DNA from: an uncultured Chlamydiae bacterium | GTDB lineage: Bacteria > Chlamydiota > Chlamydiia > Chlamydiales > Parachlamydiaceae | Reading direction: 5' to 3' | Assembly (NCBI GenBank): GCA_963754655.1 | Contig: CAVWGN010000001.1 | Span: 1,920,001-1,984,000, forward strand | DNA length: 64,000 bases | Shown: piece after piece, positions 3,583 to 52,685 of the stretch | Numbering within the stretch: position 1 is the stretch's first letter | How the letters are laid out: each line of letters starts with the position of its first letter | Translations under genes and position numbers: made by a program | The notes under the pieces: generated by a model | Database searches by the model: none | What the model saw: only the letters and a program-made list of their open reading frames with translations | What the model was told of the DNA's origin: nothing

Positions 3583-3991
3583 ATTTTCTTCTTCCTTTTG
3601 ATTATGATTAAAAATTTAATACAATAATTAATAAATAATTTATTATGTTTACAAATGATATTATACAAACTATTTTAATTTTTAAGCGAGTATTAAAAAC
3701 ACTTTTTATTTAATTGACATTTGTATTAGATTTATTTTCAACTTGAGATTGATTTAATATCAAATGAATTTAGTAAAAAAATTTGATTTGATATTAAATC
3801 TATAGAAACAGTTTTTCCTTCAAAAAAATTTATCTAAATCGATCATAAAAATGAATAAAAACAAAAAATCCTGTCTTTTGTTGGCATGAAGATGATCCGA
3901 ATTGCCAGGGTGTTTTTACTAAACATATTTGACACTTGCAGCCCTTTAGGCTGCATGACACAACCCGCTCATAACCGAGGCGTTGTTCTAG

Positions 3992-4149
3992 TACTCCACC
4001 ACATTAGTTTTGTGTGTTTAGATTGCTTGAAAGCTCCCGCGGTTGAATTGACGTAAGTGGGTCAATATTAGCAATATGGACCCACTTACGCCAATTCAAC
4101 CCCGGGGCTTTGAAGCAATCTAAACACACAAAACTAATGTGGTGGAGTA
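3992..4149. mobile_element. 158-bp palindromic MITE (family A), flanked by CTAG
   Basis: CTAG-TACTCCACCACATTAGTTTTG...CAAAACTAATGTGGTGGAGTA-CTAG; empty single CTAG at 1147-1150. Confidence 0.9.
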
Positions 4150-4153
4150 CTAG

Positions 4154-4990
4154 GGAGCGTACCTAAAAGATTTAAAATAATAACTCTTATGATTTATAAT
4201 TTTCTGTGATAAAACAAGGGGGAAATTTGAATGAGTAGGATAGTATTAACTAATGAAAGATGGATAAAAATAAAACCTTTATTGCCAAAAGAACGAGGAT
4301 ATTGGGGCAGACCAAGTCGGCCTCATCGTAAGATTTTAGAAGGCATTATTTGGATTTTAAGAACAGGAGCCGCTTGGAGGGATCTACCACCCAAGTATGG
4401 TCCTTGGAGCACATGTTATAATCGCTTTAATCATGGACAAAGGCTGGAATCTGGCAAACGATTTGGCAAGCTTTAAAAGATGAAATTGACGAAGAAAATT
4501 ACTCTGTAGACAGCTCAATTGTTGAAGCGCATCAAGATGCTTGTAGGATAAAAAAAAAGCCGAAGAAGCCATGGGAAAATCAAGGGCCGGAACAACCACA
4601 AAAATTCATGCAGTAACAGATGGATTAGGTCGTTGTATTGATTTTATCTTGACAGAAGGCCAAGTACACGAGAGCACTCAAATGAAGCTTTTACTCAGTG
4701 GAAAAAATCCACAAAATGTTATAGCTGATAAAGCTTACGACTCAAATGAAATCAGAAATTTTATAGAAAAGATGGGAAGTCAAGCAGTCATACCCAGCAA
4801 AGTATCAAGAGCTGAACTAATTGAACATGATAAACATATCTACAGAGAGCGTTGCTTGGTAGAAAATTTTTTTCAGTTTATAAAACGATTTAGGCGTATT
4901 GGAATAAGATACGAAATGAAAGCTCAAAATTATGCAGGAATGTTGACGATCGCTTGTATTATACAATGGTTAATCTTTTAGGTACGCTCC
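4154..4990 (+). mobile_element. IS5-family (IS427-like) insertion sequence, 837 bp
   Basis: 19-bp perfect TIR GGAGCGTACCTAAAAGATT, CTAG on both sides, transposase motifs WILRTGAAWRDLP, TKIHAVTD, IADKAYD, VENFF. Confidence 0.95.
4231..4981 (+). pseudogene. IS5 transposase orfA/orfB; -1 slippery A9G at 4550-4559 plus an extra 1-nt frameshift near 4432
   Basis: Conserved WTKAGIWQ...DSSIVEAHQ is out of frame with the orfA start. Confidence 0.75.
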
Positions 4991-5214
4991 CTAGTCTATT
5001 GCACTTACAGCCTTTCAGGCTGATAAAGAACCTCAGCTATAATATTAGACCACAAGTCTAAAAGTACAATAAGAAATTCCCTGCATTAGCCTGAAGGGCT
5101 TTAAGTGCAATAGACCAGGGCAACGCCCTGGGTATAAGTGGTTTGTGTCATACAGCCTGAAGGGCTGCAAGTGTCAAATATGTTTAGTAAAAACACCCTG
5201 ATTGAATTGCTTTT

Positions 5215-6063
5215 TTATTGAATTTCTTGAAAGAAATCTTTGATCTTTGCTTCACATTCTTCTTTTGACATATATCCTACAAGGCGGGAAACAACCTTTC
5301 CTTTATACATTAAGATAGTTGTCGGATAGGCTTTGACCTTTAAAAAGTTGACTAATAACGTCTCTTCATCAGCATCAATTTTAGCAAATTGGCATTCTTT
5401 CTTATATTTTTCATGTAATGTTTCAAAAATGGGAGCAAAATATCTACAAGGACGACACCAGTCTGCATAGACATCAATAATGAAGGCCTTGTCTGATTGT
5501 TCAACTTCTTCATGAAAATTATTTTTGGTTAATTGAAGAATTTCCAAAGCCTTGTTGGAACTCTCTCTTGAACTTTCATCGCCAATTTGAAGTTGATCCT
5601 GAGATTTGACCTCAGATACTTCAACGCTTTGTTGAATGATAGAATCCAATAAATCATCCATGACTTGCACATTCGCTTTGGTAATGGAAAAAGAGTGATC
5701 CATATACTTAATAAAAGCCTCATTTTCAAAGATTTGACGCAGCTGATGAATTTCTTCATCAGAGAAGGTGCCATAAGGTTGCATCAATTGTTGGCGCGCC
5801 TCTTTTGTGTGAATCGCCTGTCGTAAGCGTTTAACAACGAGCTCTAATGGTAATTTTTTTTGACTTTTATCAATTGCCTGTGCCGTATACATGGCTGCAA
5901 ACTTATCAAATGTCTGTTCTCTAAGAAAGCTTTGATCTAATATCATATTTAAATCTGCGTCGCGCGTTGTCGAAATTTTTGGTTTTTCAGCCTCTCGACC
6001 ATCTAAACCAATGTTCACTATTAAACTAAAACAAACCGCTAAAACATAGAAGCTGAATTTCAT
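5215..6063 (-). CDS. Exported thioredoxin-domain protein
   Basis: Signal-peptide-like N-terminus, helical N-domain, C-terminal Trx fold with WCRPC. Confidence 0.85.
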   Translation of the reverse strand: MKFSFYVLAVCFSLIVNIGLDGREAEKPKISTTRDADLNMILDQSFLREQTFDKFAAMYTAQAIDKSQKKLPLELVVKRLRQAIHTKEARQQLMQPYGTFSDEEIHQLRQIFENEAFIKYMDHSFSITKANVQVMDDLLDSIIQQSVEVSEVKSQDQLQIGDESSRESSNKALEILQLTKNNFHEEVEQSDKAFIIDVYADWCRPCRYFAPIFETLHEKYKKECQFAKIDADEETLLVNFLKVKAYPTTILMYKGKVVSRLVGYMSKEECEAKIKDFFQEIQ

Positions 6064-6265
6064 AAATCTTCCCCGTAATAATTAATAAAGTGAAAAGCCA
6101 TAATAAATTATGAAATATTTTAATATTTCTTTGCAACTTAAATGAATTTTTTAATTATTGCGAAAGAGCTATGAAATAATTTTAAATGAATTAGCATTTC
6201 AATTATAATCATCATAAAGTGAACGCAGGATTTAATTGTAAAACTTATTTAACTTTCTAGGATCG

Positions 6266-7351
6266 ATGAATACATTAAAGATTAAGCAACTTTATCTTAT
6301 GATCTTCTGTCTGTTTTTATTATCTGTTTTAGAGCTTCATTTCATCTCGTTGAGCGGAGCTCTTTTTGCTGCAGTTCTCCCTCCACACGTAGGTGAAAAT
6401 GGATCGACTGCGCCAAAGCTTTTATCAGTTTCACGCATTTGGGATCAGGCAGCGCACAATGCTTTTACAGATTTGATTGAGTATCAAGGCTCTTTCTTTT
6501 TGACCTTTCGTGAATCAAATGAACACGCAGAGGGTGAAGATGGTTCGATCCGCATTTTAACGAGCGAGGATGGAAAGACTTGGCGGCCAATCGCTTTTTT
6601 AAGCAAGGAAGGATTTGATTTGCGCGATCCTAAATTTTCCGTTATGCCGGATGGTCGATTAATGTTGACTTTAGGTGGATCGATTTATCGCCAAGAAGAA
6701 TACGTGACAACCCATCCTTTGGTTGCTTTCTCTCATAATGGAGTGGATTGGTCTGACATTGATCTTATCCAAATGCCTGGAAATTGGATTTGGAAAATGG
6801 CCTGGCATATAGGCATCGGCTATGGAGTCTCTTATCACCCTAAAGATCCCTTAAATATTAAAACTCCTTGGATCATTACTCTTCTTCAAACCAAGGATGG
6901 TCTCCACTATTCGCCTATAACGGATCTAGATGTTCCTAATCATCCAAGTGAAGTCACATTGCGCTTCTTACCTGATGGGACTATGATTGCCTTAGTGCGA
7001 CGCCAAGGAAATGGATGGATTGGCTCTTCGATGCCCCCTTATACAACATGGAAATGGTCCGATTCTGGTTCACGCCTTGGGGGCCCTGATTTTCTCATTC
7101 TATCTAATGGTGACATGTGGGCATCCTCTCGTCTCATTACTAAAGAAGCCGACAAAACACTGACTTATACTGCTTTAGGGCGAATGACATTGAGCTCTTA
7201 TCAACCAGAACTCGTATTGCCTAGTGGAGGAGACACAAGTTATCCAGGTATGGTTTACCGCCATGGCATTCTTTATCTTAGCTATTATTCTTCGCACGAG
7301 GGGAAAACAAGCATCTATTTTGCCCAAATTCAGTTAGCGAATATTCCATGA
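6266..7351 (+). CDS. Secreted sialidase-like/BNR beta-propeller protein
   Basis: HNAFTDL..FRE, Asp-box SEDGKTW, DLRDPK, GGDTSYPG motifs. Confidence 0.7.
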   Translation: MNTLKIKQLYLMIFCLFLLSVLELHFISLSGALFAAVLPPHVGENGSTAPKLLSVSRIWDQAAHNAFTDLIEYQGSFFLTFRESNEHAEGEDGSIRILTSEDGKTWRPIAFLSKEGFDLRDPKFSVMPDGRLMLTLGGSIYRQEEYVTTHPLVAFSHNGVDWSDIDLIQMPGNWIWKMAWHIGIGYGVSYHPKDPLNIKTPWIITLLQTKDGLHYSPITDLDVPNHPSEVTLRFLPDGTMIALVRRQGNGWIGSSMPPYTTWKWSDSGSRLGGPDFLILSNGDMWASSRLITKEADKTLTYTALGRMTLSSYQPELVLPSGGDTSYPGMVYRHGILYLSYYSSHEGKTSIYFAQIQLANIP

Positions 7352-7554
7352 CTAAGGGACCTTGGCAGAATCCGGAATCGCGCTTGACAATCTATCCGGA
7401 TTTGATGCCATGCAAGCCAATCACATAAACTTAAGAACTGTTATCCTAAAAGAAGCATATAGGCTCTTTCACGGTGATGGCTAGCACACCCCTATCATAA
7501 GTCTCAAAGACTACAACTATACAACCGTGACAAGAAAGCCCGGAGGGACATACG

Positions 7555-7618
7555 CATTAAGCTAAGAGATGAGCTTAGGCTAAGCGACGCGACGCATCAG
7601 TAGCTGCGCCGCTTCTTA
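7555..7618. repeat. Degenerate repeat module shared with family A cargo
   Basis: TAAGAGATGAGCTTAGGCTAAGCG resembles 21786-21810, 36213-36240 and 60177-60200. Confidence 0.55.
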
Positions 7619-7655
7619 CTCGGGCTGGGATGAGAAAAAAAATATTTAACAACTG

Positions 7656-8795
7656 TCAAACTTCAAGACTTTTTAGCCTCAAAGAAGCAAGCGTTTGCAA
7701 CAAGGATAATGATGTCAAGTCCAGGTCCTGGCAGATCTTTAATTTAAGCTCTTTTACGCTTTTAGGGAGCATGTCTAGGGATGCTATATGAGTCAATCCT
7801 ACATTAAGCTTTTCTAGCTTTAAAAAAGAACCAAGCATTTGAAAGGATTCTGCTGTAAGAGCCGCGCATCCTTCTAAGTCAAGCTCTTTTAAGCTTTTGG
7901 GGAGCTTGTCTAGGGAGACTATCTTATTAAATTTCACAACAAGTTTTTCTAGCCTTGAAAAAGACTCATCAAGCTTTTGAAATGATTCTGCCGTAAGAGA
8001 ATAGCAATACGTTAAGTCAAGCTCTTTTAAGCTTTTGGGGAGCTTGTCTAGAGAGGCTATGTTAGTCAATCCTACATTAAGCTTTTCTAGCCTTGAAAAA
8101 GACTCATCAAGTTTTTGAAAGGATTCTGCTGTAAGAGAATGGCAATTCCATAAGTTAAGCTCTTTTAAGCTTTTGGGGAGCATATCTAGGGAGTCTATAT
8201 TAGCCGATTTTAAAGTAAGATTTTCTAGCTGTGAAAAAGAAGATAAATCTAATTCCTTTGAAGTGCTTGATAGAGTCAAGGATCGAAGATTGGGACATGC
8301 ATGTTGTAATCTTCTGAGTTGTTCATTATCTAATATTGTAAAAGTGGAGAGATCGAGTGTAGTGATTTCTTCTCTAAATTGCAGGGCAGCCTCAAATCTT
8401 TGCCCAGGAGTTGGGTTACTATCTAACAAGTGAAAAGCTAATAATTTTCCCATAATTTGTGAATAGGTCTCCATTGAATCTGCTGCCTTAAGCAGCTCAG
8501 GGTAGCGAATATAATGTGGAGAAGGATTGTCTAGGTACTGCATGATTTGATTCCAAAGATTTTGATCTTCTGGTTGAATCTTAAGTTGTTGAAGTAAGTT
8601 TTTAACTGCCTGTGCATTTTCTTCTGATTGCAAAAAAAAGGCTGCGTCTCTTAAAAAATCTTGAGTAATAAGATTAATTTTTTCTAAATTTTTCGTTTTA
8701 TCTGAAGGGACTTTCTCACTATTATAAGTGTTGATTAATTCCTGCAAATAAACATCCTTAGATGAATGTAAATGATAAGAATGACTCGAATCCAT
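7656..8795 (-). CDS. LRR-repeat protein, paralog 3
   Basis: 379 aa, same N-domain and 46-aa LRR units, intact distinct C-terminal cap. Confidence 0.9.
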   Translation of the reverse strand: MDSSHSYHLHSSKDVYLQELINTYNSEKVPSDKTKNLEKINLITQDFLRDAAFFLQSEENAQAVKNLLQQLKIQPEDQNLWNQIMQYLDNPSPHYIRYPELLKAADSMETYSQIMGKLLAFHLLDSNPTPGQRFEAALQFREEITTLDLSTFTILDNEQLRRLQHACPNLRSLTLSSTSKELDLSSFSQLENLTLKSANIDSLDMLPKSLKELNLWNCHSLTAESFQKLDESFSRLEKLNVGLTNIASLDKLPKSLKELDLTYCYSLTAESFQKLDESFSRLEKLVVKFNKIVSLDKLPKSLKELDLEGCAALTAESFQMLGSFLKLEKLNVGLTHIASLDMLPKSVKELKLKICQDLDLTSLSLLQTLASLRLKSLEV

Positions 8796-9175
8796 ATTTT
8801 CTTTCCCCCTTTTTAGTTTTACTATGCACTAAAACCTGTCAGTAATTGAAATCCTATAAAGCAATACGCTGAGTATAATTCATCATACGTTCTACAATGA
8901 AGCCATATAAAATTTTGATTATAATACAAAATTTAATGTGATAATAAATAAAATAAATCTATAACATCTATAAAATTAATTATATAAATTATTTTATTTT
9001 AAATATATTAAATAACTATTTATTTAATGTGATTCATATTTATATTACATCTATTTTCACTCTACAGACAAGGTGTTTACTAAAAAGTTTATTATCTAAA
9101 TCGATAGGAAAATGAATTAAAAACAAAAAAAAATTTTCCTGTCTCTTATTAGCATTAAGATTATCAAATTGTGTT

Positions 9176-9215
9176 TTATTGAATTTCTTAAAAGAAATCT
9201 TTGATCTTTGCTTCA
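9176..9215 (-). pseudogene. 3'-terminal remnant of the thioredoxin gene
   Basis: TTATTGAATTTCTTAAAAGAAATCTTTGATCTTTGCTTCA matches 1370-1409 and 5215-5254. Confidence 0.7.
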
Positions 9216-9221
9216 AGTTCT

Positions 9222-9335
9222 ATGTGAGGGATTGTGAACCTACCGTTCGGTCGCACTCCAAGGCTCTGTCACGGTGAGGTTATGACCCTCCTCGCGAAGC
9301 GGCGCGGCGATTTTAAATGCGTCGCTTAGCTTGCT
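9222..9335. repeat. Degenerate repeat module related to the 21845-21900 cargo
   Basis: ACCGTTCGGTCGC..GGCTCTGTCACGGTG and GCGAAGCGGCGCGGCGA motifs. Confidence 0.55.
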
Positions 9336-9421
9336 TTCTCTTTTAAATTGATAGATGCATTAGGGTGGCTAAGCAGCAAAATCTTTGACTTCGCTGGCGT
9401 AGGATAAGTGAATGAGTTAGC

Positions 9422-10879
9422 CTATTGAAACATTTGTTCTGTTTCTTTGGGGCCCCAGCTCCCCGCTAGATAATTAGGAAAGTTTAAAGGAGGCTGGGAT
9501 TTCCAGACATCTAAAATAGGTTGAATAATTTTCCAAGCCAATTCAACTTGATCGATGCGCATAAATAGAGTGGCATCATGATTAATGACATCCCAAAGCA
9601 AAGTTTCATAAGCTTTTTCTGAAGGCTTTTTAAAAGCTTGTTCATAATTAAACTTCATATTGACTTGAGCCAGTTTAAGATCATAACCGGGATGTTTGGC
9701 ATAAAATTGCAGAGTAATTTCTTCTTCAGGTTGAATGGATAAAACCAAGCACGCCGGTTGGTTGCTTAAAAAGCAACTCTGAGGAAAAGCACTATGCGGA
9801 ATATCACGAAAATAAATCACAATTTCAGATTTATGCTCTGTTAAGCGTTTCCCCGTGCGTAAATAAAAGGGAATCCCCTGCCAACGCCAATTCTCTACTT
9901 TCAATTTTAAAGCGACAAATGTTTCTGTATTTGATTGTGGAGAAACTTTATCTTCTGAACGATAGGCCATCACCTTTTGCCCATTGATTATTCCTTCATC
10001 ATATTGCCCTCTTATGACGTCATGGGCGATTTGCTCAGGTGTCAACGGTGAAATAGATTTCAAAACATCAGCCTTTTTATTGCGAACCTCATCCTCATTG
10101 AAAGAGATAATGGGCTCCATGGCGATTAGGCAAAGCAACTGCATAAGATGGTTTTGAACCATATCTCGCAACGCTCCCGCCCCTTCATAATACCCACCGC
10201 GATGCTCAATTCCTACTGTCTCAGCAGCTGTAATTGTCACATGATCAATATATCTGCGATTCCAAATGGGTTCAAACATGGGATTAGCAAATCGAAAGGC
10301 AATAAGATTGCGAACGGTATTTTTACCGAGGTAATGATCAATACGGAAAATTTGAGACTCTTTAAAACAACACAATAAGATTTTATTCAATGCGCAAGCT
10401 GACTCGAGATCATATCCAAAAGGTTTTTCAATCACAATGCGATCAAGCTCTTCGTTTTTCGTTAATCCAGCTTGATGCAAATATTGAGGAATGACAGGAA
10501 ATAATAGGGGAGGTGTTGCCAAATAAAAAATGTTTACAGTCTCTGTATGCCACTGTTGCTCATATTGCTTAATCCGGCTACTTAAGAGTTGATAAGTATT
10601 AGAATCTTTAAAATCTCCTTTTAAATAAGAAATATAGGGGGCAAACTCTTGCCAGGTTGTCTCATCGCTTTTTAAAGCAGAAAATTGTTGAACGCCTTGT
10701 TTATAGGAGAGAGCCAAATCTTCAGATTGAATATCTACTCGATCAATCCCAATGATGGCAAAATCTTTTGGAAGACAACCATTTAAATACAAAGTGAAAA
10801 GTGCAGGAATGACTTTGCGTTTAGCTAAGTCCCCTGATGCGCCAAATAAGGTAAAAACAGTCGATTTTACATGACTCAT
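9422..10879 (-). CDS. zwf: Glucose-6-phosphate 1-dehydrogenase
   Basis: GASGDLA, EKPFG, RIDHYLGK motifs. Confidence 0.97.
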   Translation of the reverse strand: MSHVKSTVFTLFGASGDLAKRKVIPALFTLYLNGCLPKDFAIIGIDRVDIQSEDLALSYKQGVQQFSALKSDETTWQEFAPYISYLKGDFKDSNTYQLLSSRIKQYEQQWHTETVNIFYLATPPLLFPVIPQYLHQAGLTKNEELDRIVIEKPFGYDLESACALNKILLCCFKESQIFRIDHYLGKNTVRNLIAFRFANPMFEPIWNRRYIDHVTITAAETVGIEHRGGYYEGAGALRDMVQNHLMQLLCLIAMEPIISFNEDEVRNKKADVLKSISPLTPEQIAHDVIRGQYDEGIINGQKVMAYRSEDKVSPQSNTETFVALKLKVENWRWQGIPFYLRTGKRLTEHKSEIVIYFRDIPHSAFPQSCFLSNQPACLVLSIQPEEEITLQFYAKHPGYDLKLAQVNMKFNYEQAFKKPSEKAYETLLWDVINHDATLFMRIDQVELAWKIIQPILDVWKSQPPLNFPNYLAGSWGPKETEQMFQ

Positions 10880-12303: not shown

Positions 12304-12304
12304 G

Positions 12305-20983: not shown

Positions 20984-21151
20984 TAACATGTTTATACCGT
21001 CCTTTCGAGGCTGACAGAAAATTGATAATTTCAGACCTTAAATAATTTTTTGAAACCACTCACACTATACTCAAGACCAGTTAAAATAAATTATATACGT
21101 CAGAAATTATCAATTTCCTGTCAGCCTCGAAAGGACGGCATAAACATGTTA
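20984..21151. repeat. Intergenic inverted repeat (~50-bp arms, degenerate outer arms to ~20950/21178)
   Basis: TAACATGTTTATACCGTCCTTTCGAGGCTGACAG...CTGTCAGCCTCGAAAGGACGGCATAAACATGTTA. Confidence 0.85.
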
Positions 21152-21633: not shown

Positions 21634-21727
21634 CCTAGCTCCTTTTATTTGGCGCAAAATAAAACCTAATTTATCTTTTGGAAATTTTAAATGCATTAAA
21701 AGACATTTCCAAACAAGTCATGACTAG

Positions 21728-22217
21728 TACTCAACCACATTAGTTTTAGCCTATTGGGATGGTTTTAAATCCCTATGCGTTAAGGTAAGAGATGGGTGTA
21801 GGCTACGTGCCGCATTCAGTCGCCACGCCGCTTCGCTCTGGGCTCTATGAGAGGGGTCATGACCCACCGTTCGGTCGCCCTCCGGGCTCGGTCACGGTGG
21901 GCTAGAATCAGTCGTCCTACGGACTCTAGCGGCAATGTAGAAGTCATTGAATGTTAGGTAAGGTGTTTGATAATAGTGCTGCTAGAATGCTAGTCAAGGC
22001 GTTTTGATAATGCCGCTAGAGTCCGTAGGACGACTGATTCTAGCCCACCGTGACCGAGCCCGGAGGGCGACCGAACGGTGGGTCATAACCCCTCTCATAG
22101 AGCCCAGAGCGAAGCGGCGTGGCGACTGAATGCGGCACGTAGCCTACACCCATCTCTTACCTTAACGCATAGGGATTTAAAACTATCCCAATAGGCTAAA
22201 ACTAATGTGGTTGAGTA
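21728..22217. mobile_element. 490-bp near-perfect palindrome with family A termini
   Basis: 207-bp arms 21728-21934 / 22011-22217 with about 2 mismatches, 76-bp spacer, CTAG flanks. Confidence 0.92.
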
Positions 22218-22384
22218 ACTAGTACTCCATTAGATCAGTTTTAACCTATTGGAGCGTTTTTTTTATGCCTTTCGCCAACGACTATTAAAATTGTCATCCT
22301 CAAATGAAAATTATTATATGATTAAATAAATCAAAAATTTTAATTAAATTAAATAATTAATTTAATTATATTTATATTAATTTT

Positions 22385-32206: not shown

Positions 32207-32328
32207 TTCCTGGATAATTACAATTTAATAAATATAATTTTTTATATTCTACAACCGTTTAGTATTTAAAAAAATATAATTTGATCCCTTATTAAAGTCA
32301 ATAGACATTTGAGTCCGGAGGGCGACCG

Positions 32329-32649
32329 GGGTGTGATTAATCTGGGAGTTTATATTTTTTAGCAGATCGATACGAAATGGTAGGGCGGCGGTAGCCCCTT
32401 TCAGTGGGAAGCCCCGTATGAAGCGAGCTTGCGAGCGGAATGCGGGGTGGGCATCAATAAAATATAAACCGCGGAAGCGGTGTGAGTGATCTTACACTGC
32501 TTCCGCAGCTCAATGCTATCTTGCCTACACCCCGCATTCCGCTCGCAAGCTCGCTTCATACGGGGCTTCCCACTGAAAGCGGCTACCGCCGCCCTACCAT
32601 TTCGTATCGATCTGCTAAAAAATATAAACTCCCAGATTTAATCCCACCC
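32329..32649. mobile_element. 321-bp palindromic element with 9-bp flanking direct repeat
   Basis: ~120-bp inverted arms plus inner hairpin; GGGCGACCG (32320-32328) / GGGCAACCG (32650-32658). Confidence 0.85.
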
Positions 32650-32690
32650 GGGCAACCGATTAGTCTAATTTCACCTCTTACAGAGCAACC

Positions 32691-35946: not shown

Positions 35947-36212
35947 ACCTCTCCATAAAATGTTAAGGATTAAACACTTTAATTATGCCCATTCACAGTC
36001 ATTTTTGCAAATACTTGCTTTGCTCACGTTTAATCCTTCGCCCTTTTTAATTACTCTTAAAGTAGAAGAGATAAAACTCTCACGTGTGAAGAGAAAGAAG
36101 ATAAGAGCATCACAAATTTAAACCAATTTAAAACAAAAAGCATTGCTTATTTTGAAAAATATGCTCAAAATATTTGTAATGAATTAATATTATTTGAAAA
36201 TTAGGAAATGAC

Positions 36213-36340
36213 TTAAGAGATGCGCTTAGACTAAACGGCGCAGCGACTGAATGCATCACTTAGTCTAAGCACATCTCTTAATTTAACACATGATAGGTTT
36301 AAGACTATCCAATATGCAAAAACTCATGTAACTGAGCACT
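36213..36340. repeat. Degenerate right half of a family A-type element
   Basis: Resembles 22110-22217; ends ...AAAACTCATGTAACTGAGCACTA next to CTAG. Confidence 0.6.
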
Positions 36341-36414
36341 AACTAGTACTCCATTACATTAGTTTTGCGTATTTGGACTGCTTCAAAGCCCCGAGGTTAG
36401 GAGGAGATGATTCT

Positions 36415-37158
36415 CTAGCAATTCGTCTAAAAGTTTTTAGTTTTTGGAAAAAATTCTCCACATCCTTTCTTTTTTATACAAACGCTTGCTATAGGGAATT
36501 TCATCAGTTCTCTTTGGGTGACTTGGAATGACAACTCGTTCCTTTCTTTTCATTAAATAGTATCTAATTTCATCTGTATCATAAGCTAGATCTGCTATAA
36601 CATTTCTTGCTCGTTTCCCATTTAATAGAGATTTAGCAAATAAATTATCATTTCTATTTCCAGGAGCAATTTTTACTTTTAATGGTTGCCCTTCAGCATT
36701 AACTACAACATGAATTCTTGTTGACCAACCACCTTGTGTCTTTCCAATTCCATTAAATGTTTTTCCTCCAAAACCTCCCATTGCATTTTGATGTACTTTA
36801 ACACTTGTAGAATCAATAATATGTGATTCGTGGGATGCATTTTTTTTTCAAAACACTCCAAATTTTTGACCAAGTTCCATTTAAGGTCCAGTTATGCATT
36901 CTTGAATAGATCGTTTGCCAGTGGCCAAATTCAGGGGGCATATCTCTCCAAGGAGCTCCCGTTCTTATAGACCATAAAATCCCTTCTATTACCAACCGAT
37001 CATTTTTTCTAGGTCTTCCCTGTTTACCTGTTTGCGAAGGTAATAATGGACTTAGCTTCTCCCAGTCCTTATCTTTTAAAAACATTCTAGTCATAAACAC
37101 CTCCTATGGGTCCCTACAACTATTATTATATCATAAATAATCTTTTTAAAACACGCCC
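36415..37158 (-). mobile_element. Truncated IS5-family element (orfA 36813..37100, orfB ~36420..36850, A9 slippery site)
   Basis: WSIRTGAPWRDMP, IDSTSVKVHQ, IADLAYD; left end GGGCGTGTTTTAAAAA; 3' part lost at CTAG. Confidence 0.88.
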
Positions 37159-37160
37159 TG

Positions 37161-37310
37161 GGTCGGGACTTAACAAAGAACTGTTTTTGGGCTTGATATT
37201 CTTCGTATCGATTTAACAACGACCCGCCTATAACAGCATTTAGAGGCATATTTATCGAAAATGACGCGAAAAATTATCAAGCCCAAAACAGTTCTTTGTT
37301 AAGTCCCGGC
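37161..37310. mobile_element. MITE-like element B, copy 1
   Basis: ~33-bp TIR CGGGACTTAACAAAGAACTGTTTT(T)GGGCTTGA. Confidence 0.8.
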
Positions 37311-37386
37311 ATATGGCTAGGTAATCGGAATTTTTTATCTTTGTTTTTGCAATGTTGCTTGATCCATATCCTTTCCCTCAGCGACG

Positions 37387-37621
37387 AGCGGCGTTAGCCG
37401 CGCATGGATAGTAGCCGTGGGTGTAGGCGCAAGCCGAAACCCACGGTTACCCAAAAAACAAATTTGAGCCACGTTAGTGGCGTATCATTCGTTTAAATAA
37501 ACATTACTCCACAATCACATTTCCTACGCCACTAACGTGGCTTCATTTTTTTTACCATACACCGTGGGTTCCGGCTTGCGCCTACACCCACGGCTACTAT
37601 CCATGCGCGGCTAACGCCGCT
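37387..37621. repeat. REP-like GC-rich palindrome C
   Basis: AGCGGCGTTAGCCGCGCATGGATAGTAGCCGTGGGTGTAGGCGCAAGCCG and its inverse; inner AGCCACGTTAGTGGCGTA pair. Confidence 0.88.
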
Positions 37622-37676
37622 TGAGCGACAAATTTAGCTTCTGGAGTTTGCCAGAAGCATTTCCTTCCTAGCCTAT

Positions 37677-37826
37677 GGCCGGGACTTAACAAAGAACTGT
37701 TTTGGGCTTTGATGTTTTTCCCGTCATTTTCGGGAAGTATGCCTTTAAAGCCTGTTACAGGCGGGGTGCTGTTAAATTGACATGAAGAATATCAAGCCCA
37801 AAAAAGTTCTTTGTTAAGTCCCGGCC
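37677..37826. mobile_element. MITE-like element B, copy 2 (inverted relative to copy 1)
   Basis: Same TIR; the interior is the diverged reverse complement of copy 1. Confidence 0.8.
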
Positions 37827-37950
37827 CTGGGTTAGATTAGCTCTCGTCATGTAGTCTGAAGGACTATAAGAGAATCATCTCGTCCCAATCCCGGGGCTTG
37901 AAGCAATCTAAATACACAAAACTAATGTGGTTGAGTACTAGATGAAGTCA

Positions 37951-41562: not shown

Positions 41563-41993
41563 AATACTTCACTTTAATTGTTCAAATTTTAGGAATTATT
41601 TAACTTAAGTAATCACAGCTTTGGGAAGTCTTTCACTGAAAGATTTCTCAACATCTTTTAAAATAAAACACTTATATAATAAAGCAATGTCATTTTTTGA
41701 GTCATCTATAAAGACAGCTTTAGTGAAGTATTCAACAAAACTAAACGGGGAAAATAATGCAAAAAATTCAGTAACCAAGCCAGAAATCAAGTTATTTTCG
41801 ATGTGCGACGCTATTTTCTCATGAAATGCTTTCAGGAAAATTTTTAATCGTGCGAAACCGATTACAATCTAAGGATTGGTTTCGTTCATTTTTAGCTGCA
41901 CGAAGTTAAATTAAACAAGCTAGCAAGCTGATTTTAAATAACATATAAATAAAAATCAAGAAACATCATTCAAAATTTCTCATCGCTTCATTC

Positions 41994-42022
41994 TTGACAA
42001 CTTCTTATAAAAGCATTAGCAT
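41994..42022 (+). promoter_or_regulatory. Sigma70-type promoter for the riboswitch-nrdBA transcript
   Basis: TTGACA-17 bp-TAGCAT. Confidence 0.6.
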
Positions 42023-42062
42023 TTAGCGCATTGATAAGATTGCCACGCATAGTGGTAATTTT

Positions 42063-42228
42063 GTGAAAAAGTGCCTCTAGTTAAGGCTAGAGGAGAATAG
42101 GGAAACGGGTGTGAATCCCGTACGGTAGCGCCGCTGTAACGAGTGACGAAAGCCTTTAAAACCACTGTGAAAACACGGGAAGGTAGGCGAATAGGATGAT
42201 CTCGGAGTCAGAAGACCTGCTTTTTCAC
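42063..42228 (+). ncRNA. Cobalamin (B12) riboswitch
   Basis: AATAGGGAA, CGGGTGTGAATCCCG, GCCGCTGTAA, CCACTG...GGGAAGG, B12-box GAGTCAGAAGACCTGC; P1 GTGAAAAAG/CTTTTTCAC. Confidence 0.93.
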
Positions 42229-42322
42229 TCTCATCAAGTCCTCAAATATGTATTTGAGGCTACTCTCTCGCCAAAGAGAGGATGGGGACAAAGAATGCTG
42301 CCTTCAGTTTTACTGATTTGCC

Positions 42323-42371
42323 GCCTTCCATGTCCTTAAATTAGGGACTGGAAAGGCATTCTGTTTTTTTT
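42323..42371 (+). terminator. Probable riboswitch expression-platform terminator
   Basis: GCCTTCCATGTCCTTA..TAGGGACTGGAAAGGC hairpin followed by a T8 run. Confidence 0.6.
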
Positions 42372-42398
42372 CACTCCCTATGATATGAAACCACGTCC

Positions 42399-43550: not shown

Positions 43551-43567
43551 TCCAAGGAATCACAATC

Positions 43568-46387: not shown

Positions 46388-46593
46388 AAGGGGAAAAATG
46401 GGAGTTAAATCAGATAATCAGGCGAACAGAATCTAGTGCGTAAAATTTGCCTAAAAACAAAATATTACCCTTCTTCATCGTATGTAAAAAGTACCTCTTT
46501 TCTCCTGGATATGCTACAATTAATCCGTTATTAAGTGCGTAAAGCACCTTATAAATAAAAAACTTAAATTCAATTTTAAAAGGTGGAGATTAA

Positions 46594-47496
46594 ATGAGTT
46601 TAATCACATATAACATTGGGAATGCTTATCGTTATTTATCAGAAGCTTTTCAACAACAAAATCATGATGAAATAAATCAAGATGAATCAACATGGCCTTC
46701 CTATCAGACTATAGCCGTTTCCTTTTTTGTGGCTACAGTAGGTGCTTGTGCTATAAGAAAATTTATTAATACTGTATTTCAGCCAGTTAAAGATACTCCT
46801 GAATTATTTTGGAAAGAATTAGAAAGTAATCAAAGACCCCCTCTACCTTCAGGGCCAGTTGTTGTTATGGGTAAGGTAATTGCTGAAAATTTACCTTCAT
46901 TACAAAAACAAATGTTTTCCTCATGTAATGGAGTATCACAAATGTTTGTTGAATATATACAAAAAAAAGGCTTAAAACCTAAAAATGTGATAGATCTAGG
47001 TTGTGGTATAGGTGCTAATTCATATCCTTTATTGAAATATGGTGTGAATGTTGTTGCAATAGATAGTATGGAATGTTTGCTAGAAGCATATAGATCACGT
47101 ATTAATAGCAAAGAAAAGCAATTTGCTTTATTGCAATGTGCTGATCTCACTACGTTGGAAAAATATGGTACAGAAGCCAATATAGCAGATATTGCTCTTG
47201 CTATTGATGTCTTGCCATATCTTCCGATTTCTTGCTGGAAAAGTACTATGGAAAAGATCGTAGTGTCTTTAAAACCTGGAGGTTATTTTTTTGGCACTGT
47301 GTTTGTCAAAAAAGCCTGGTTGAATCATCCAGTTGTGGCTTTTCATGAAAAATTTGGAGCACAGTATTATCAAATTCGTGATTTGGCTGCACGGTTAATT
47401 CACCATTCTGGTCTCGAGATGGTAGAATGTCGTCTCAGAGAAAATGGTTCTGGTTGTTATGAATTTGTTGCACGTAAACCTAGCCACAGGGCATAG
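46594..47496 (+). CDS. SAM-dependent methyltransferase with N-terminal TM extension
   Basis: VIDLGCGIG, LKPGG. Confidence 0.85.
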   Translation: MSLITYNIGNAYRYLSEAFQQQNHDEINQDESTWPSYQTIAVSFFVATVGACAIRKFINTVFQPVKDTPELFWKELESNQRPPLPSGPVVVMGKVIAENLPSLQKQMFSSCNGVSQMFVEYIQKKGLKPKNVIDLGCGIGANSYPLLKYGVNVVAIDSMECLLEAYRSRINSKEKQFALLQCADLTTLEKYGTEANIADIALAIDVLPYLPISCWKSTMEKIVVSLKPGGYFFGTVFVKKAWLNHPVVAFHEKFGAQYYQIRDLAARLIHHSGLEMVECRLRENGSGCYEFVARKPSHRA

Positions 47497-47668
47497 GACA
47501 TTAAATCTGAGGTTTTTTCCTTCTTTCATTGTATCCTGCATGAATAAATCTAGAAAGATACTTAGAGATACAACAGATTTCAAATATTTTTTAATGTCCT
47601 GTGCCTGATAACTCGTCTCCTAAAAGCCTTACCTGCAAGACATACAATGAAACTCTAGGAAAATTGTA

Positions 47669-48166
47669 ATGTTGTCTGAATATCGGTTCATTTTTAAACC
47701 CATGGAAGCAAAAGATCGGCTTCTTATTCATGAATGGCTTGTACAACCCCATATTGCTGAGTGGATTCACGGAGCCGGACTTCAAAATACACTGAACGGT
47801 CTAGAAAAATTTTTCCAAGGAAAGTCTGACACTACTTACTGGATTGGTTATCATGAAGACATTCCTTTTGCATTTTTGATTACCTCTCCTGAAGGAAATG
47901 ATGCGACCACTTTGGACTTGTTCATTTGTGACCTGAATTATTTGGGGAAAGGAATTGCTGTGCCCATGATTCAGGAGTTTTTAATTAGCCAGTTTCCAAT
48001 TGTGAAAAGGGTTTTGATAGACCCTGAAGTCACTAATAAACGAGCCATCCATGTGTACCAAAAAGTGGGTTTTAAGATCATTGGAGAGTTTATTGCAAGC
48101 TGGCATCCTGTGCCTCATTATCAAATGGAGCTACATATGAAAGATCTTTTAGAGGCAAAGAAATGA
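47669..48166 (+). CDS. GNAT acetyltransferase (AAC(6')/siderophore acetyltransferase-like)
   Basis: WLVQPHIAEW, GKGIA, IDPEVTNKRAIHVYQKVGF. Confidence 0.88.
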   Translation: MLSEYRFIFKPMEAKDRLLIHEWLVQPHIAEWIHGAGLQNTLNGLEKFFQGKSDTTYWIGYHEDIPFAFLITSPEGNDATTLDLFICDLNYLGKGIAVPMIQEFLISQFPIVKRVLIDPEVTNKRAIHVYQKVGFKIIGEFIASWHPVPHYQMELHMKDLLEAKK

Positions 48167-48399
48167 ATGAAGCTTCCTGTTATTTAGAGCAACACGATAC
48201 TATTTCTAAAAAAATGGAGAAGAAAATGCGCAAAGATTCAATGACAAAGCCTGAAATTAAGGAGCTTGAAGGGCTCCAAATTGAAATAACCCAGGCCAGC
48301 GGCCTGGGAAAAACACCCCATATCGCAGTCTGAAAGACTACAAGAGAAATTATGGTTCACTCACTTGCAAGTGGGGTATGATTAAATTTGGGAGTTTAT

Positions 48400-48748
48400 A
48401 TTTTTTAAAAGATCAGGCATTAAAGGCTTATCAAAGTTATGAAAAAAGAGTGAAAGCAGGAGGATATTATGAAAAAGAAAGACTAAGTCTACCTACGAAG
48501 AATTTATTGAAGATGATGAGCAACAGGCTTTACTTGATAAAGAATACAAAGAACTACTCTTATCTGAATTACTTATGGCGGCAATGAAGCATGATCATAT
48601 TTCAGTAAGAAAATTAGCCTCAGCAGGTGTATCTTCAACAATTATTCAAGGCCTAAAGTCTGGATCAAAAACAAACATAACGATTGATACGTTATCGAAG
48701 ATTTTAGATGCTGTGGGTTATCAAATCCATCTTTGCTCCAAAAAATAG
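48400..48748 (+). pseudogene. Decayed toxin-antitoxin pair: toxin C-terminal remnant plus frameshifted XRE-HTH antitoxin (48469-48748)
   Basis: After a frameshift at ~48480 reads KSTYEEFI...ISVRKLASAGVSSTIIQGLKSGSKTNITIDTLSKILDAVGY. Confidence 0.65.
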
Positions 48749-49130
48749 CCCTGAAAAGAAACTGGAATTAGCGTAAATATAGAAATTAATTCACTGCGTC
48801 TCCAAACAAAAGGCGAAGTAGCCGACTTGTGAGACTCCAAGAGAATTGTACAATTTTTGAGCAGGAAAGTTTTGCTCCCCAGTAAAAATAATCATCTTGC
48901 GAATTTTGTGAAGTTCCTTAGCATCTAGTAAGAGTTATTGCATAACAGATCTAGAATATCCTCTTTGTCTAAAGCTAGACACAGTCTAAACACCACCAAC
49001 CTTTCCTAAGTCCAATGCCTTGGCGTTTAAATCAGCGATAGACACAAGAGCATTGTTAAGAAATAGACCCCCAATCATTTTTCTTTTCATTTTTTCAAGA
49101 AACTGATCTAAGAGCTGTTTATCAGTCATA

Positions 49131-49649
49131 CTATTGTCGGATAAATGTCCAATTCAAGGGATCGCCATCTTTGTAAGGCATATATCCGTGAAAAACATGC
49201 GGATTGCCATCAAACACCAGCGGCAAAAAATAACGGTCGCCTTTCCACATAGGCAACTCCTCCATTATTTCCAAAGGCACCCATTCCAGCAATCCTTCAT
49301 CGTTTTGCTTATAAGGGATACCCGCAAAGCTTTCAATGAGAAAGATAAAGCCAAGCCAATCTTCACCAGCGGGACCAAAACCTGTCCAATTAATCGTACC
49401 GCGCAATTTCATGAGAGTACATTCGATACCCGCTTCTTCTCTTATCTCGCGCTGCATACATGTCACCACATCTTCGTTGGATTCCATTTTGCCACCAAGA
49501 CCATTGTACTTACCATGATGATGATCGCCTTTGCGAGCATTGCGGTGCACGAGCAAAACACGTTTATGATCCGGTGACAAGACATATCCAAGCGTTCCCA
49601 AAATAGGCTTATAAGGCATAATAACTCTTTCTGTTAGATTTAAGTGCAA
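49131..49649 (-). CDS. mutT: NUDIX hydrolase, 8-oxo-dGTP diphosphatase-like
   Basis: GGKMESNE...REIREEAG Nudix box. Confidence 0.85.
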   Translation of the reverse strand: MHLNLTERVIMPYKPILGTLGYVLSPDHKRVLLVHRNARKGDHHHGKYNGLGGKMESNEDVVTCMQREIREEAGIECTLMKLRGTINWTGFGPAGEDWLGFIFLIESFAGIPYKQNDEGLLEWVPLEIMEELPMWKGDRYFLPLVFDGNPHVFHGYMPYKDGDPLNWTFIRQ

Positions 49650-49944
49650 TAGCTTATGTTAAGCCAAAGAAACTCACAATCTTTTTGTAAGTTAGTTTTT
49701 ATCTGTCATTTTTACCAGGCTCAATTTCTAATCCCTGTGAAAGAAGTTCAGAACGATAAGGCTGACCATCCTATGCTAGCATTGCCATTTTTTCATGTAT
49801 TTTGAAAAAAAGAAGAAATTTTGAAGAAAAAGGAGTTTTATTGACGATTGTTGCAGTTTATTGCTGTCTAATGCGTAAAAACTGCGTAGTTGACTTTGAT
49901 TAGGCTTGTGAGAAATATTTTAATTTCTCGCTTAGAATGAAATA

Positions 49945-50026
49945 TGGGGGCGGTTGGACTCGAACCAACGGAGACCGAAGTCGAGGGATTTACAGTCCCT
50001 TGCAATTGCCACTATGCGACACCCCC
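49945..50026 (-). tRNA. tRNA-Tyr(GTA)
   Basis: Cloverleaf with long variable arm, anticodon loop CTGTAAA, GTTCGA. Confidence 0.96.
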
Positions 50027-50031
50027 TAGGA

Positions 50032-50104
<73 letters not shown>

Positions 50105-50202
50105 GAAAGAAAGAGTTTTATAACAAAATCATTCTTTCCATACAACAATTTTATTCTATCAAGCAATAATTCCTTCTTAACCTTCTGTGAAACCTCACTT
50201 TT

Positions 50203-50538
50203 CTATTGATTAGGCGTGTCCTTTGACTCATCTTGAGCTAAATAGTCAGAGGGATTTGGCGGAACGGGTGGCTTATCTTCATGTGAATGCAGCGCTTGTC
50301 CAAACGAACGCTCCATTAAAGTCGTATAATCAACTGCAGCCTTCACCTGCCCTGGCTGTGAAGTCTCTTGCGGCTGAGGTTTATTGCTCCCTCCACCACT
50401 TAAAACTTTAGCCGTAAACTTGCGGCCCCCCAAAGAGCTTTTTTTTTGTTGCTGCTGTTCATTTTTCAAACAGCAATTTTTATATTTTTTCCCAGATCCA
50501 CAAGGACATGGATCATTTCTTCCTACCTTCTCTAGCAT
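50203..50538 (-). CDS. SEC-C motif protein
   Basis: [20 protein letters not shown]. Confidence 0.9.
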
Positions 50539-50773
50539 AAGACCTCTATTTTATTTCTTTTATTTTTGCTGAGGAAATCAGCTTGACACCGCTTGGCTCG
50601 TCCTGTAAAATATCTTCTTTTCAACTTATATAAGTATAGCATTTCCAGCGCTTTCTACCAAAAATTATCTAGTATAAGTGAACTTTCATCAACTTGTTTC
50701 TTTATGTTTTTTTTCTAAATAGATTAATTATAAATGACCCTTATTTTTTAAAACAATTATAAAACATTATTTT

Positions 50774-51514
50774 ATGACCTTTCCTATTGCACGCCCCCCT
50801 TGGACCGCTCTCGGCAAACGTTTAGAAAGCACTCTTCGCAAGGCTTTATTTGACTTTGAAATGCTCAAAGATGTGTCAAAATTGGCAGTTGCTCTCAGTG
50901 GCGGTAAAGACAGCTTGACTCTTTTATTTCTATTGAAGGCCATTGCGGGACGCGGCTTTCCCAATTTCGATCTTTATGCCATTTATGTTTCAGGAGAATT
51001 CTCTTGCGGAGCTGGAGTTGATGAGGATTACTTGCGAGGCATTTGTGAAGAATTAGGAGTCCATTTTCTCACTCGCTCCTCTTCTCAGAAAAGAGAAACC
51101 TTGGAATGCTATAGTTGCTCGCGTGAGAGAAGGCGTTTACTTTTTGAAGCTGCTAAAAGCGTTGGTACAACGACAATTGCTTTTGGACATCATCGCGACG
51201 ATCAAGCGCAAACTGTCTTGATGAACCTTCTACATAAAGCTGAATTTGCGGGCAATTTACCTAAAATTCATATGCAAGAATATGGTGTGACAATTATCCG
51301 TCCATTGATTTATATAGCAGAGCAAGATATTCGAACATTTGCCCAGCAACAAGGATTTGCCCGTGTTGTTTGCCGTTGCCCAGTCGGACAAAACTCTATG
51401 CGCAAGCAAACCGATCAACTTTTAAGCGAAATTGAAACAATTTTTCCAAATGCGCGTGAAAATATTGCCCAAGCTGGGCTAATATATGGATCTCAAAAAG
51501 CAGCGATCCCTTAA
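50774..51514 (+). CDS. ttcA: tRNA 2-thiocytidine biosynthesis protein TtcA family
   Basis: SGGKDS, CYSC, GHHRDD, IRPL, CRCP. Confidence 0.9.
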   Translation: MTFPIARPPWTALGKRLESTLRKALFDFEMLKDVSKLAVALSGGKDSLTLLFLLKAIAGRGFPNFDLYAIYVSGEFSCGAGVDEDYLRGICEELGVHFLTRSSSQKRETLECYSCSRERRRLLFEAAKSVGTTTIAFGHHRDDQAQTVLMNLLHKAEFAGNLPKIHMQEYGVTIIRPLIYIAEQDIRTFAQQQGFARVVCRCPVGQNSMRKQTDQLLSEIETIFPNARENIAQAGLIYGSQKAAIP

Positions 51515-51550
51515 CAACCCAAGCGTTGGATTCTTTCTCCATTTGCGTAA

Positions 51551-52447
51551 ATGGCGAAAAAACCAAAAATCAGGTTAAAAATGGAGCCATTTATGACTGA
51601 TTCTATCCCAAGTGAACATGAAAGCCGGGTCAACATCCAGGGAATTGAGATTGCCTTGGGATTTCCAGATGAATTTAAATTTGAATGGATTGGCCAGCGT
51701 GATGTATTGGAACAGTTATTGGCCGCATGGTTAGTCATTGATAAAAATGATATTCCCCTTAATCCACGTTTGATTGGCAAACCGGGTGTAGGAAAAACAA
51801 CCTTGGCTTATGCGGCTGCCAAAAAACTCAATAAACACGTGTATATTTTTCAGTGCACCATGGATACTCGCCCTGAAGATCTTTTAATTACTCCTGTCGT
51901 TGATAAAGGAGGTGGAATTCGCTATGTGGCTTCAGCCCTTGTCACCGCCATGATTCGCGGAGGTGTATGCATTTTAGATGAAGCCAATCGCATGAGCGAA
52001 AAATCATGGGCCTCCTTGGCGCCCCTACTAGACACAAGACGCTATATTGAATCCATTGTTGCAGGGCTTAAGGTCTCAGCTCATCCTGAATTTCGCATTT
52101 GCGTGACAATGAATGATGACGCCTCTACTTTTGAGATCCCAGAATACATTCACAGCCGCTTGCAGCCTCAAATTTATCTCGACTTTCCTGAGGCAGAAGA
52201 GGAGCGCCGCATCTTAAAAGAAAATCTTCCCTTTGTTGACGAGTATATTTTAGAGTATGTAGTTAACTTTTTACAACGCGCCCATGCGCAACACGAGAAT
52301 TACACTATTCGAGACGGCATCAATATTGCGCGCTATGCTGCCAAGCGCATTAAAAGCTTAAATAGTAGTAGAGGCAATTTTGAAAACTTACTTCGCGAGG
52401 CCATCCTCATGACTTTAGGTGATGAAGCTTTAGCTCATATTCTTTAA
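51551..52447 (+). CDS. MoxR/CbbQ-like AAA+ ATPase
   Basis: GKPGVGKT, ILDEANR, SRL. Confidence 0.9.
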   Translation: MAKKPKIRLKMEPFMTDSIPSEHESRVNIQGIEIALGFPDEFKFEWIGQRDVLEQLLAAWLVIDKNDIPLNPRLIGKPGVGKTTLAYAAAKKLNKHVYIFQCTMDTRPEDLLITPVVDKGGGIRYVASALVTAMIRGGVCILDEANRMSEKSWASLAPLLDTRRYIESIVAGLKVSAHPEFRICVTMNDDASTFEIPEYIHSRLQPQIYLDFPEAEEERRILKENLPFVDEYILEYVVNFLQRAHAQHENYTIRDGINIARYAAKRIKSLNSSRGNFENLLREAILMTLGDEALAHIL

Positions 52448-52467
52448 AAAGTCTCTTTCATGCCTAG

Positions 52468-52625
52468 TACTCAACCACATTAGTTTTGTGTATTTAGATT
52501 GCTTGAAAGCTCCCGCGGTTGAATTGGCGTAAGTGGGTCCATATTGCTAATATTGACCCACTTACGCCAATTCAACCCCGGGGCTTTGAAGCAGTCTAAA
52601 TACACAAAACTAATGTGGTTGAGTA
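52468..52625. mobile_element. 158-bp palindromic MITE (family A), flanked by CTAG
   Basis: Near-identical to 3992-4149. Confidence 0.92.
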
Positions 52626-52685
52626 CTAGCTATAACCTGATCTTTCAGGCTGTAAGGCTTTACAAAACTTAGAAGAGTTTCTTTC

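Follow-up and report, generated by a model that had tools for sequence, protein, structure and literature searches.

Family A palindromes of a Parachlamydiaceae genome are probable IS630-type miniature elements with nested modules and a core that may change its termini

Within the window (the whole 64,000-nucleotide stretch analysed here, positions 1,920,001 to 1,984,000 of contig CAVWGN010000001.1 of an uncultured Parachlamydiaceae bacterium; genome 3.16 Mb, 2 contigs, 96.7% complete), long palindromes bounded by one terminus that follows CTAG constitute what is termed here family A. [quoted passage not shown] Family A would then be the outer layer of a non-autonomous nest, each layer being moved in trans by a different transposase family. 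We also lean, on balance, towards a second conclusion: the lineage is defined by its inner core, and its termini have repeatedly been swapped among unrelated transposase families (several IS630 clades, duplicating TA, and IS5, duplicating TWA) at a fixed distance of 34-37 bp, the core acting as a functional site (putatively protein-binding or transposition-enhancing) and as the landing pad of an unclassified IS family. MITEs are usually defined by their ends and are expected to die with the loss of their helper transposase; across the bacterial family studied here, the ends that accompany a single interior belong to at least two transposase families. If true, the core outlives any single helper transposase, offering a testable route to long persistence and to the birth of new MITEs.

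Four elements with paired family A termini lie in the window. Their interiors of 158 bp (3992-4149 and 52468-52625), 490 bp (21728-22217) and 1591 bp (36347-37937), and the half-elements at 22223 and 36200-36342, are all present as an earlier sequence-only reading had described them. The features concerned are as follows; coordinates prefixed C1: are those of contig C1 and bear no relation to the module of that name.

1065..1356, no strand: family L palindrome, built from three-hairpin modules; its CTAG (1147-1150) is the unoccupied counterpart of the filled site at 3988.
3988..4153 with its CTAGs (element 3992-4149), no strand: 158-bp MITE of ancestral type.
4154..4994, plus strand: IS5a, an IS5-family element of 837 bp with two open reading frames (ORFs); the span includes its second CTAG (4991-4994), and a CTAG is held in common with the 158-bp MITE.
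21724..22222 (element 21728-22217), no strand: 490-bp MITE with the same terminal inverted repeat (TIR) and a different linker.
22223..22255, plus strand: degenerate half-terminus that uses CTAG 22219-22222 jointly with the 490-bp MITE.
36200..36342, minus strand: half-element, a degenerate family A terminus with an F1 hairpin, back to back with the 1591-bp composite.
36343..37941 with its CTAGs (element 36347-37937), no strand: 1591-bp composite MITE.
36416..37154, minus strand: IS5b, an IS5-family element inside the 1591-bp composite; one of its ends is truncated, with the loss of about 100 bp and of ORF B's C-terminus.
37155..37832 (element 37164-37823), no strand: 660-bp E[K-H-K]E unit.
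37833..37888, minus strand: module D arm, whose beginning resembles the TIR of the unclassified IS and whose remainder corresponds to the 3' end and flank of tnpA C1:2544251.
52464..52629 with its CTAGs (element 52468-52625), no strand: second 158-bp MITE, missing from the orthologous gap in two congeners.

The 158-bp MITE is ordered as: an IS630-type TIR and linker; a core arm with a CCCnGGG target; the B hairpin (4044-4099); and the mirrored arm. The interior of the 490-bp MITE consists of F modules, with 207-nt arms that are 99% complementary. This copy has one additional A ahead of its right CTAG; the other three elements have CTAG on both sides. Fold z-scores are -21.8 for the 158-bp element and -48.5 for the 490-bp element. 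The adjoining IS5a looks intact (4154-4990). The interiors had been described as non-coding, which does not hold throughout the 1.59-kb interior, as this contains the truncated IS5.

The family extends far beyond these few copies. A degenerate 20-base terminus pattern, allowed up to 2 mismatches, gives the genome-wide count that the sequence-only reading had called for: 247 matches, as compared to 2 in a Markov-3 model of the main contig. CTAG directly precedes 156 of the 247. Pairing of termini within 5 kb yields 82 elements of 75-4177 bp, the majority of them long palindromes; one pair, which spans ordinary genes, was dropped as spurious, leaving 81 for later counts. None of the 56 elements of up to 700 bp lies inside an ORF of at least 150 aa, and the ORFs in large elements belong to other ISs. 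At 10 of the 247 termini, the flanking TAG or TAA is the stop codon of an ORF of at least 150 aa.

Mobility is reflected in empty sites. When left and right flanks were blasted separately, adjoining matches were obtained for 13 of the 81 elements, 5 of which were self or neighbour matches and were dropped; the 8 empty paralogous sites that remain all have a 4-base overlap, which is CTAG in 6. The pair at 1147 (empty) and 3988 (filled) had been offered as proof of mobility. Mobility stands on the strength of the other paralogous pairs; this pair contains two insertions, the A element and IS5a, and so by itself fails to single out the shell. Comparison of orthologous loci, also proposed earlier, was possible with other species rather than conspecific strains: in congeners G002 and G003, the two genes that surround 52468 are neighbours separated by 11 and 22 bases, with no element between them, and as the upstream gene is only 77-81% identical, this reports element absence and not a precise empty site. 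Synteny around the 490-bp locus is broken in the congeners, which leaves no empty site to be read at that locus. Composite elements at unrelated loci are up to 99.4% identical, so shell and cargo are copied together. Empty paralogues and module mapping thus bear out a mobile, non-autonomous, CTAG-targeting shell with varied modular interiors.

The target itself can be resolved further. In 27 pairs, TA is present on both sides without CTAG occurring twice; a 4-bp direct repeat is found in none of them, the outer base varies in 16, the inner base in 7, and both in 4. Family A inserts at CTAG, and comparison of these flanks makes it most likely that the TA within it is what is duplicated. The resident IS5a (23 copies) also uses CTAG and might be proposed to move family A, since 15 of its 23 copies abut an A terminus while A termini supply only about 3% of the 5501 CTAG sites. 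However, the TIR of IS5a is unrelated to that of family A, and a common target accounts for the adjacency, leaving this proposal very improbable.

The terminus belongs with IS630. Scanned for exact matches, the species collection yielded 5 loci, all of them in cyanobacteria; three of these genomes hold 85, 205 and 66 terminus copies (up to 3 mismatches). There, the terminus bounds 1.3-kb two-ORF elements whose protein scores 140.8 bits against NF033545 (IS630; cut-off 100). Of 17 matches, the 9 longest were inspected; each of these cyanobacterial loci ends in this TIR class, and in five the ends are close in sequence to A's own terminus. In the host's phylum, 26 of 401 genomes contain homologs. 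Paired CTAGTRC ends are clean at 12 of the 24 chlamydial homolog loci examined, and those nearest to A agree with it at 20/24 and 19/24 bases. The terminus pattern with up to 2 mismatches occurs in 1 of 60 other genomes among relatives, and a chlamydia-specific extended pattern gave 0 metagenome matches. These alignments show the terminus to be the TIR class of an IS630 clade, which makes family A in all probability an IS630-type MITE. The sequence-only reading had guessed at IS630, correctly as judged by the elements of cyanobacteria and chlamydial relatives; the intact transposase it proposed to look for inside a copy is found in those organisms as IS630, but a search of this genome gave none with A's TIR. 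Family A may have lost its mobiliser here, or may be moved by the genome's more distant IS630. Two other candidates were set aside: IS701, as mobiliser or as the family from which A derives, with no PF13546 match in the genome; and RAYT as shell mobiliser, as the two tnpA tested fall under the RAYT cut-off and no tnpA lies between paired A arms.

A different possibility is that the whole element is a REPIN- or TIR-type unit moved by an HUH TnpA of the IS200-like kind, CTAG being the cleavage context. The core does keep conserved mismatches between its arms, and such mismatches resemble TnpA-bound hairpins. Six IS200-like tnpA genes also lie between palindromic modules that recur inside A elements, and TnpA-REP enzymes cut at CT, as a portion of PMC8266576 describes. 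These points are outweighed by others: the terminus bounds DDE IS630 genes, with no tnpA found between paired A arms in this genome; the duplications of TA, TWA and 9 bp are DDE signatures; the two tnpA tested exceed the IS200 cut-off and reach only 23-25 bits with the RAYT model (cut-off 80); and an IS605-type hairpin with the core only was found in 0 of 351 genomes (one search pattern). Moreover, A begins after CTAG with 20 bases that form no hairpin, unlike the GTAG-tagged short palindrome unit of REPINs. For the element as a whole this possibility is improbable; the HUH reading likely remains for the inner modules only.

Inside the IS630-type shell, the structure of the interiors suggests growth by insertion. 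Mapping of 18 module pieces over the whole genome gives 337 module loci spanning 126.5 kb (~4% of the genome), 149 of which contain an A arm; modules also turn up where A is lacking, and many composites are not symmetric. The 158-bp element is the ancestral form; within its core lies RCCCNGGGY, which an unclassified two-ORF DDE IS of this genome uses as its 9-bp target. Junctions within 2 mismatches of this motif are found for module C1 (149/175), E (100/145), D (53/96) and IS termini (28/36), against a background of 0.4% at random sites. A 9-bp direct repeat (up to 1 mismatch) bounds 11 of 17 E[KHK]E units; it is exact in the window (37155-37163 and 37824-37832). Modules C1, E[KHK]E and D therefore sit at RCCCNGGGY, C1 and D with the ends of the unclassified IS family. 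Growth by symmetric accretion is not supported in the form first envisaged: the modules are self-symmetric units that enter at the defined 9-bp target with duplication, often off-centre, and symmetry is bettered afterwards by homogenisation. Interiors are accordingly taken to grow mainly via nested insertion, arm-to-arm copying then refining the symmetry. The B hairpin was also considered as a late insertion with its own duplication and rejected in that role: across the family, B lies between the two core arms.

The unclassified IS is 1848 bp in length and has 10 full copies (for example L071:257-2104, which is G000:C1:69956-71803). Its target is RCCCWGGGY, with exact duplication in 8 of 9 paired copies, of 9 bp once relatives set the ends, and its two ORFs have an apparent -1 frameshift. 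Relatives of the IS (L358, L365) end in the terminus of module C1, and module D starts like the IS's own TIR. It has 51 unnamed homologs; relatives occur in Nostoc and in 23 of 400 phylum genomes. Neither Pfam nor NCBIfam has a transposase model that matches it, and a PDB sequence search with the transposase gave 0 matches. The predicted fold (pLDDT 89.9) lies nearest Hermes, P element and ISCth4 (E 3e-5 to 4e-4), and the protein contains invariant acidic residues and a D-x-x-H motif; in the ESM Atlas it falls among unnamed clusters, with family leads at only 0.80. The element is possibly an uncatalogued IS family. It resembles the prokaryotic Mutator-like DDE transposases (IS256, ISLre2, ISKra4/ISMich2), as far as PMC3942029 covers them, in its nearest folds and in a -1 frameshift as in ISMich2. 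Unlike them, it has no Pfam or NCBIfam model and is target-specific for RCCCWGGGY. In the p-MULT comparison its traits are the 9-bp duplication (p-MULT range 8-10 bp), candidate DDE residues and the lack of a family-model match, which leaves it unassigned. A target-specific DDE family outside Pfam and NCBIfam is thereby exposed.

The third layer is formed by hairpins like those beside tnpA. The genome has six IS200-like tnpA genes (L074-L077, L002), each with its own flanking hairpin family, and modules of these families recur inside A elements. In the window, the 490-bp interior matches the downstream flank of tnpA C1:2429452, and module H matches a flank of C1:2802252. Free D copies hold the last codons of the C1:2544251-type tnpA. 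Inner modules C2, D/G, F and H are long inverted or self-complementary repeats beside IS200-like tnpA, dispersed genome-wide, as is typical of TIRtrons/TIRYT. The sequences of the inner three-hairpin modules thus correspond to those flanking this genome's IS200-like tnpA genes. Because they contain further CCCWGGG sites, nesting is recursive. The resulting hierarchy is an IS630-type shell, 9-bp-target MITEs and TnpA-flank hairpins.

Module C2, which is not in the window's A elements, matches the Rfam family Acido-Lenti-1 (RF01687): of 1077 candidates 150 were scored, which gave 148 matches, with 11 over the cut-off; the flank of tnpA C1:395846 is included, tying this orphan motif to a tnpA flank. 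The A core and the B hairpin are unlike it in that they match no Rfam family at the gathering threshold; the repeats of the window give only sub-threshold hairpin matches with E up to 1. An IS1182-like element (L072; G000:C1:553817-555296) is located at one hairpin of module C2 in 11 of 11 copies. Separately, a window hairpin at 20984-21151 has arms that are 97% identical over 35 bases to an end of the IS200/IS605 element in this genome.

A change of scale, from this genome to its bacterial family, reverses the relation of shell and cargo. In congener G001, the same inner arm and B hairpin carry different ends. A 20-base core pattern is found in 33 of 73 genomes of the family (reversed pattern as control, 0) and in at least 121 metagenome stretches, with 0 matches on viruses or plasmids; as the search was keyed on the core, part of the core's conservation follows from the search itself, while B and the spacing were not in the key. 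The ends of 106 full-length elements fall into the unrelated classes TATAC (42), TAGGR (22), CTAGTRC (18) and smaller ones (11), with 13 unclassified. Symmetry between the arms of an element is 94%, identity of arms between classes is 31%, and the end-to-core distance is 34-37 bp in 92 of 93 classified elements. The fixed shell with interchangeable cargo described earlier is therefore only part of the picture: across the family, the 158-bp interior stays and the shell changes.

The shells themselves resemble ends of known ISs. Of 132 distinct shells, 44 agree at 17 or more of 22 bases with an IS end sampled from relatives, whereas shuffling gave 2 of 2640; the best matches are mostly to IS630 ends. 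TAGG-class shells have a GG- or GA-starting TIR like resident IS5 elements, which we take to be the IS1031 group. An exact TWA direct repeat is present in 28 of 29 elements of this class (selected for such ends) and in 7 of 8 IS5 loci with such ends, so the class follows a transposase family different from IS630. The shell class changes at least 30 times on the interior tree (minimum possible 3), a count that is weakened by the tree's 96 columns and many open forks. Overall, the alignments suggest that the core persists while shells are exchanged between IS630-type (TA) and IS5-type (TWA) ends.

Exchange by capture is the favoured route. An IS end would land at the common target beside the MITE, a deletion would join that end to the core, and arm copying would mirror it. 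By such copying of a new IS end to the other side, a core could change transposase family over time. The opposing view is that ends drifted through point mutation and arm homogenisation until they converged on any TA- or TWA-targeting transposase, with nothing captured from ISs. Some pairs do differ only in the outer ~14 bases (L199 vs L248), and a constant spacing in 92 of 93 elements is not what insertion and deletion would give without selection. Set against this are the pair L150 and L160, with B hairpins 96% identical and outer arms 29% identical, the excess of shells that match IS ends over shuffles, and the ISs that pile against these termini: IS630 elements in relatives and IS5a (15/23) in this genome. 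Because the spacing is so constant, gradual convergence retains a real though minor chance of being correct; we regard it as unlikely. For the core, whose termini we take to be captured, our best guess is that a protein binds it and that, at its fixed distance from the end, the site helps synapsis or transposition.

In an alignment of 45 of these core elements, compensatory change is seen in 41 of 57 pairs and one-sided change is rare in the B stem, while the mismatches between the two core arms are conserved. As a pattern in aligned bases, this fits DNA-level symmetry more than RNA selection. Template switching between arms would homogenise them, and, at a palindromic junction, the copies would be direct repeats that could recombine out the B hairpin or its neighbours, giving variant architectures. 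Origin of the core from an IS605-type end was tried and rejected, the core-only pattern having given 0 of 351 genomes and no transposase lying between core arms in L114-L294 (the few matches are neighbouring ISs).

The cyanobacterial relatives follow a like logic with different cargo: in 44 of 53 units, IS630-type ends enclose GTAG-type hairpins. The three cyanobacterial genomes with 66-205 termini each (L024-L053) have tandem arrays of 110-160-bp IS630-ended MITEs with GTAG-type hairpins.

The breadth of this survey also bears on whether the long palindromes are assembly artefacts. Their arms are very long and near-perfect, and palindromic modules form tandem expansions of up to 3.2 kb (G000:C1:413150-416390, 1766767-1768400 and 2971932-2973760), by slippage or as an assembly effect. 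Yet dozens of independent genomes, and metagenome contigs as well, show this architecture with compensatory changes, and empty paralogues and target duplications are precise, so that an artefactual origin is extremely improbable; single tandem expansions could still be artefacts. One soil run holds 7% of words, but its contigs cover only the repeats and hence provide no test of this assembly.

Several observations weigh against the nested IS630-type account and the exchange of ends. The search of this genome gave no transposase whose TIR is exactly that of A, and the query used found no close cognate-clade homolog at E 1e-20; the genome's one intact IS630 targets CTAG, but its TIR has only 5 bases after TA in common with A. 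Two of the eight empty paralogues are not CTAG, and it is the inner base that varies in 7 of the 27 informative pairs. No autonomous element with E's terminus was found. Module C1 is flanked by exact inverted 7-mers in 27 of 73 pairs but by exact direct 7-mers in just 10 of them, and no pair of D flanks forms an exact 7-bp direct repeat (0/29). As inverted C1 flanks outnumber direct ones and direct repeats at D are nil, the duplication model needs later homogenisation of arms. Identical 20-nt ends in 27 of 81 A elements, where 2000 shuffles have a mean of 14.4 and a maximum of 23, offer an independent sign of this process at A termini; we read arm homogenisation as the probable explanation of the C1 and D flank pattern.

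Most of the parts have known counterparts. RUP of Streptococcus pneumoniae, the model IS630 MITE mobilised by IS630-Spn1 (PMC2229807, in part), is similar in its TIRs from an IS630 clade, TA within CTAG, non-coding and intergenic character, family A having ~80 paired copies here. Family A differs from what that text describes in its size range of 75 bp to 4 kb via nested cargo, in its full-length hairpin, and in the occurrence of the same core with other IS ends in relatives. Duplication of TA by IS630 is given in a part of PMC2170065, whose reference list also includes a title on the CTAG preference of IS630. TIRtrons/TIRYT and REPIN-type repeats (Di Nocera et al. 2013, PMC3733652) likewise have IS200-like tnpA flanked by long self-complementary repeats and dispersed families. 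In the available portion of that paper, however, the outer palindrome is treated as a target, with no link to IS630 or end exchange, whereas here modules ride in DDE-type MITEs at two levels. The same portion notes a GGGGWSAS motif in some TIRs, and section 7 reports REP dimers inside a TA-ended long palindrome in Anabaena variabilis, a partial precedent for nesting. REP-targeting ISs (IS1397, IS621, IS1594; part of PMC3184786) use fixed sites in palindromic repeats, as do the IS1182-like element, the unclassified IS, IS5a and IS5b here; the targeting elements here differ in that they include MITEs bringing new target sites, which leads to recursive nesting.

In the literature searched (main texts, with ISfinder, supplements and most subscription papers outside), there is no description of these elements in chlamydiae or of IS630-IS5 MITE end exchange. 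The main texts of PMC11602168 and bioRxiv 10.64898/2026.10.21.760802, as far as they were available, make no mention of chlamydiae (supplements, including the MITE catalogue of PMC11602168, are outside this scope). With familiar parts, it is three-level nesting with named drivers and terminus exchange between transposase families that is unusual. By default, the elements are read as selfish DNA.

Four further module features occur in the window.

7549..7612, plus strand: module F1 fragment.
9219..9330, plus strand: modules F2/F1 fragment, 86% identical to the flank of tnpA C1:2429452.
32311..32651, no strand: separate palindrome with 124-nt arms, related to the flanks of tnpA C1:2939324 and not an A element.
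60082..60226, no strand: family L arm joined to an F1 hairpin.

The recurrence of modules in other combinations, noted in the first reading, is supported but fails at 32311: an 18-bp F2 fragment that precedes the palindrome (32326-32651) is the sole sequence in common with A interiors. The family L palindrome at 1065..1356 matches the flank of tnpA C1:2544251 weakly.

Other contents of the window and genome are as follows. Window positions 1-5700 and 7656-8795 are segmental duplications of a leucine-rich repeat (LRR) gene and a thioredoxin-like gene, LRR genes forming families of more than 100 paralogues in this genome. The second contig (G000:C2, 35 kb) looks chromosomal from its genes (EF-G-like, type III secretion-like, Suf-like), and a repeat element overlaps its ends; more probably than a plasmid, it is a piece of the chromosome left unplaced. 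A cobalamin riboswitch and four tRNA genes are located at window positions 42052-42238, 49945-50104 and 57950-58109.

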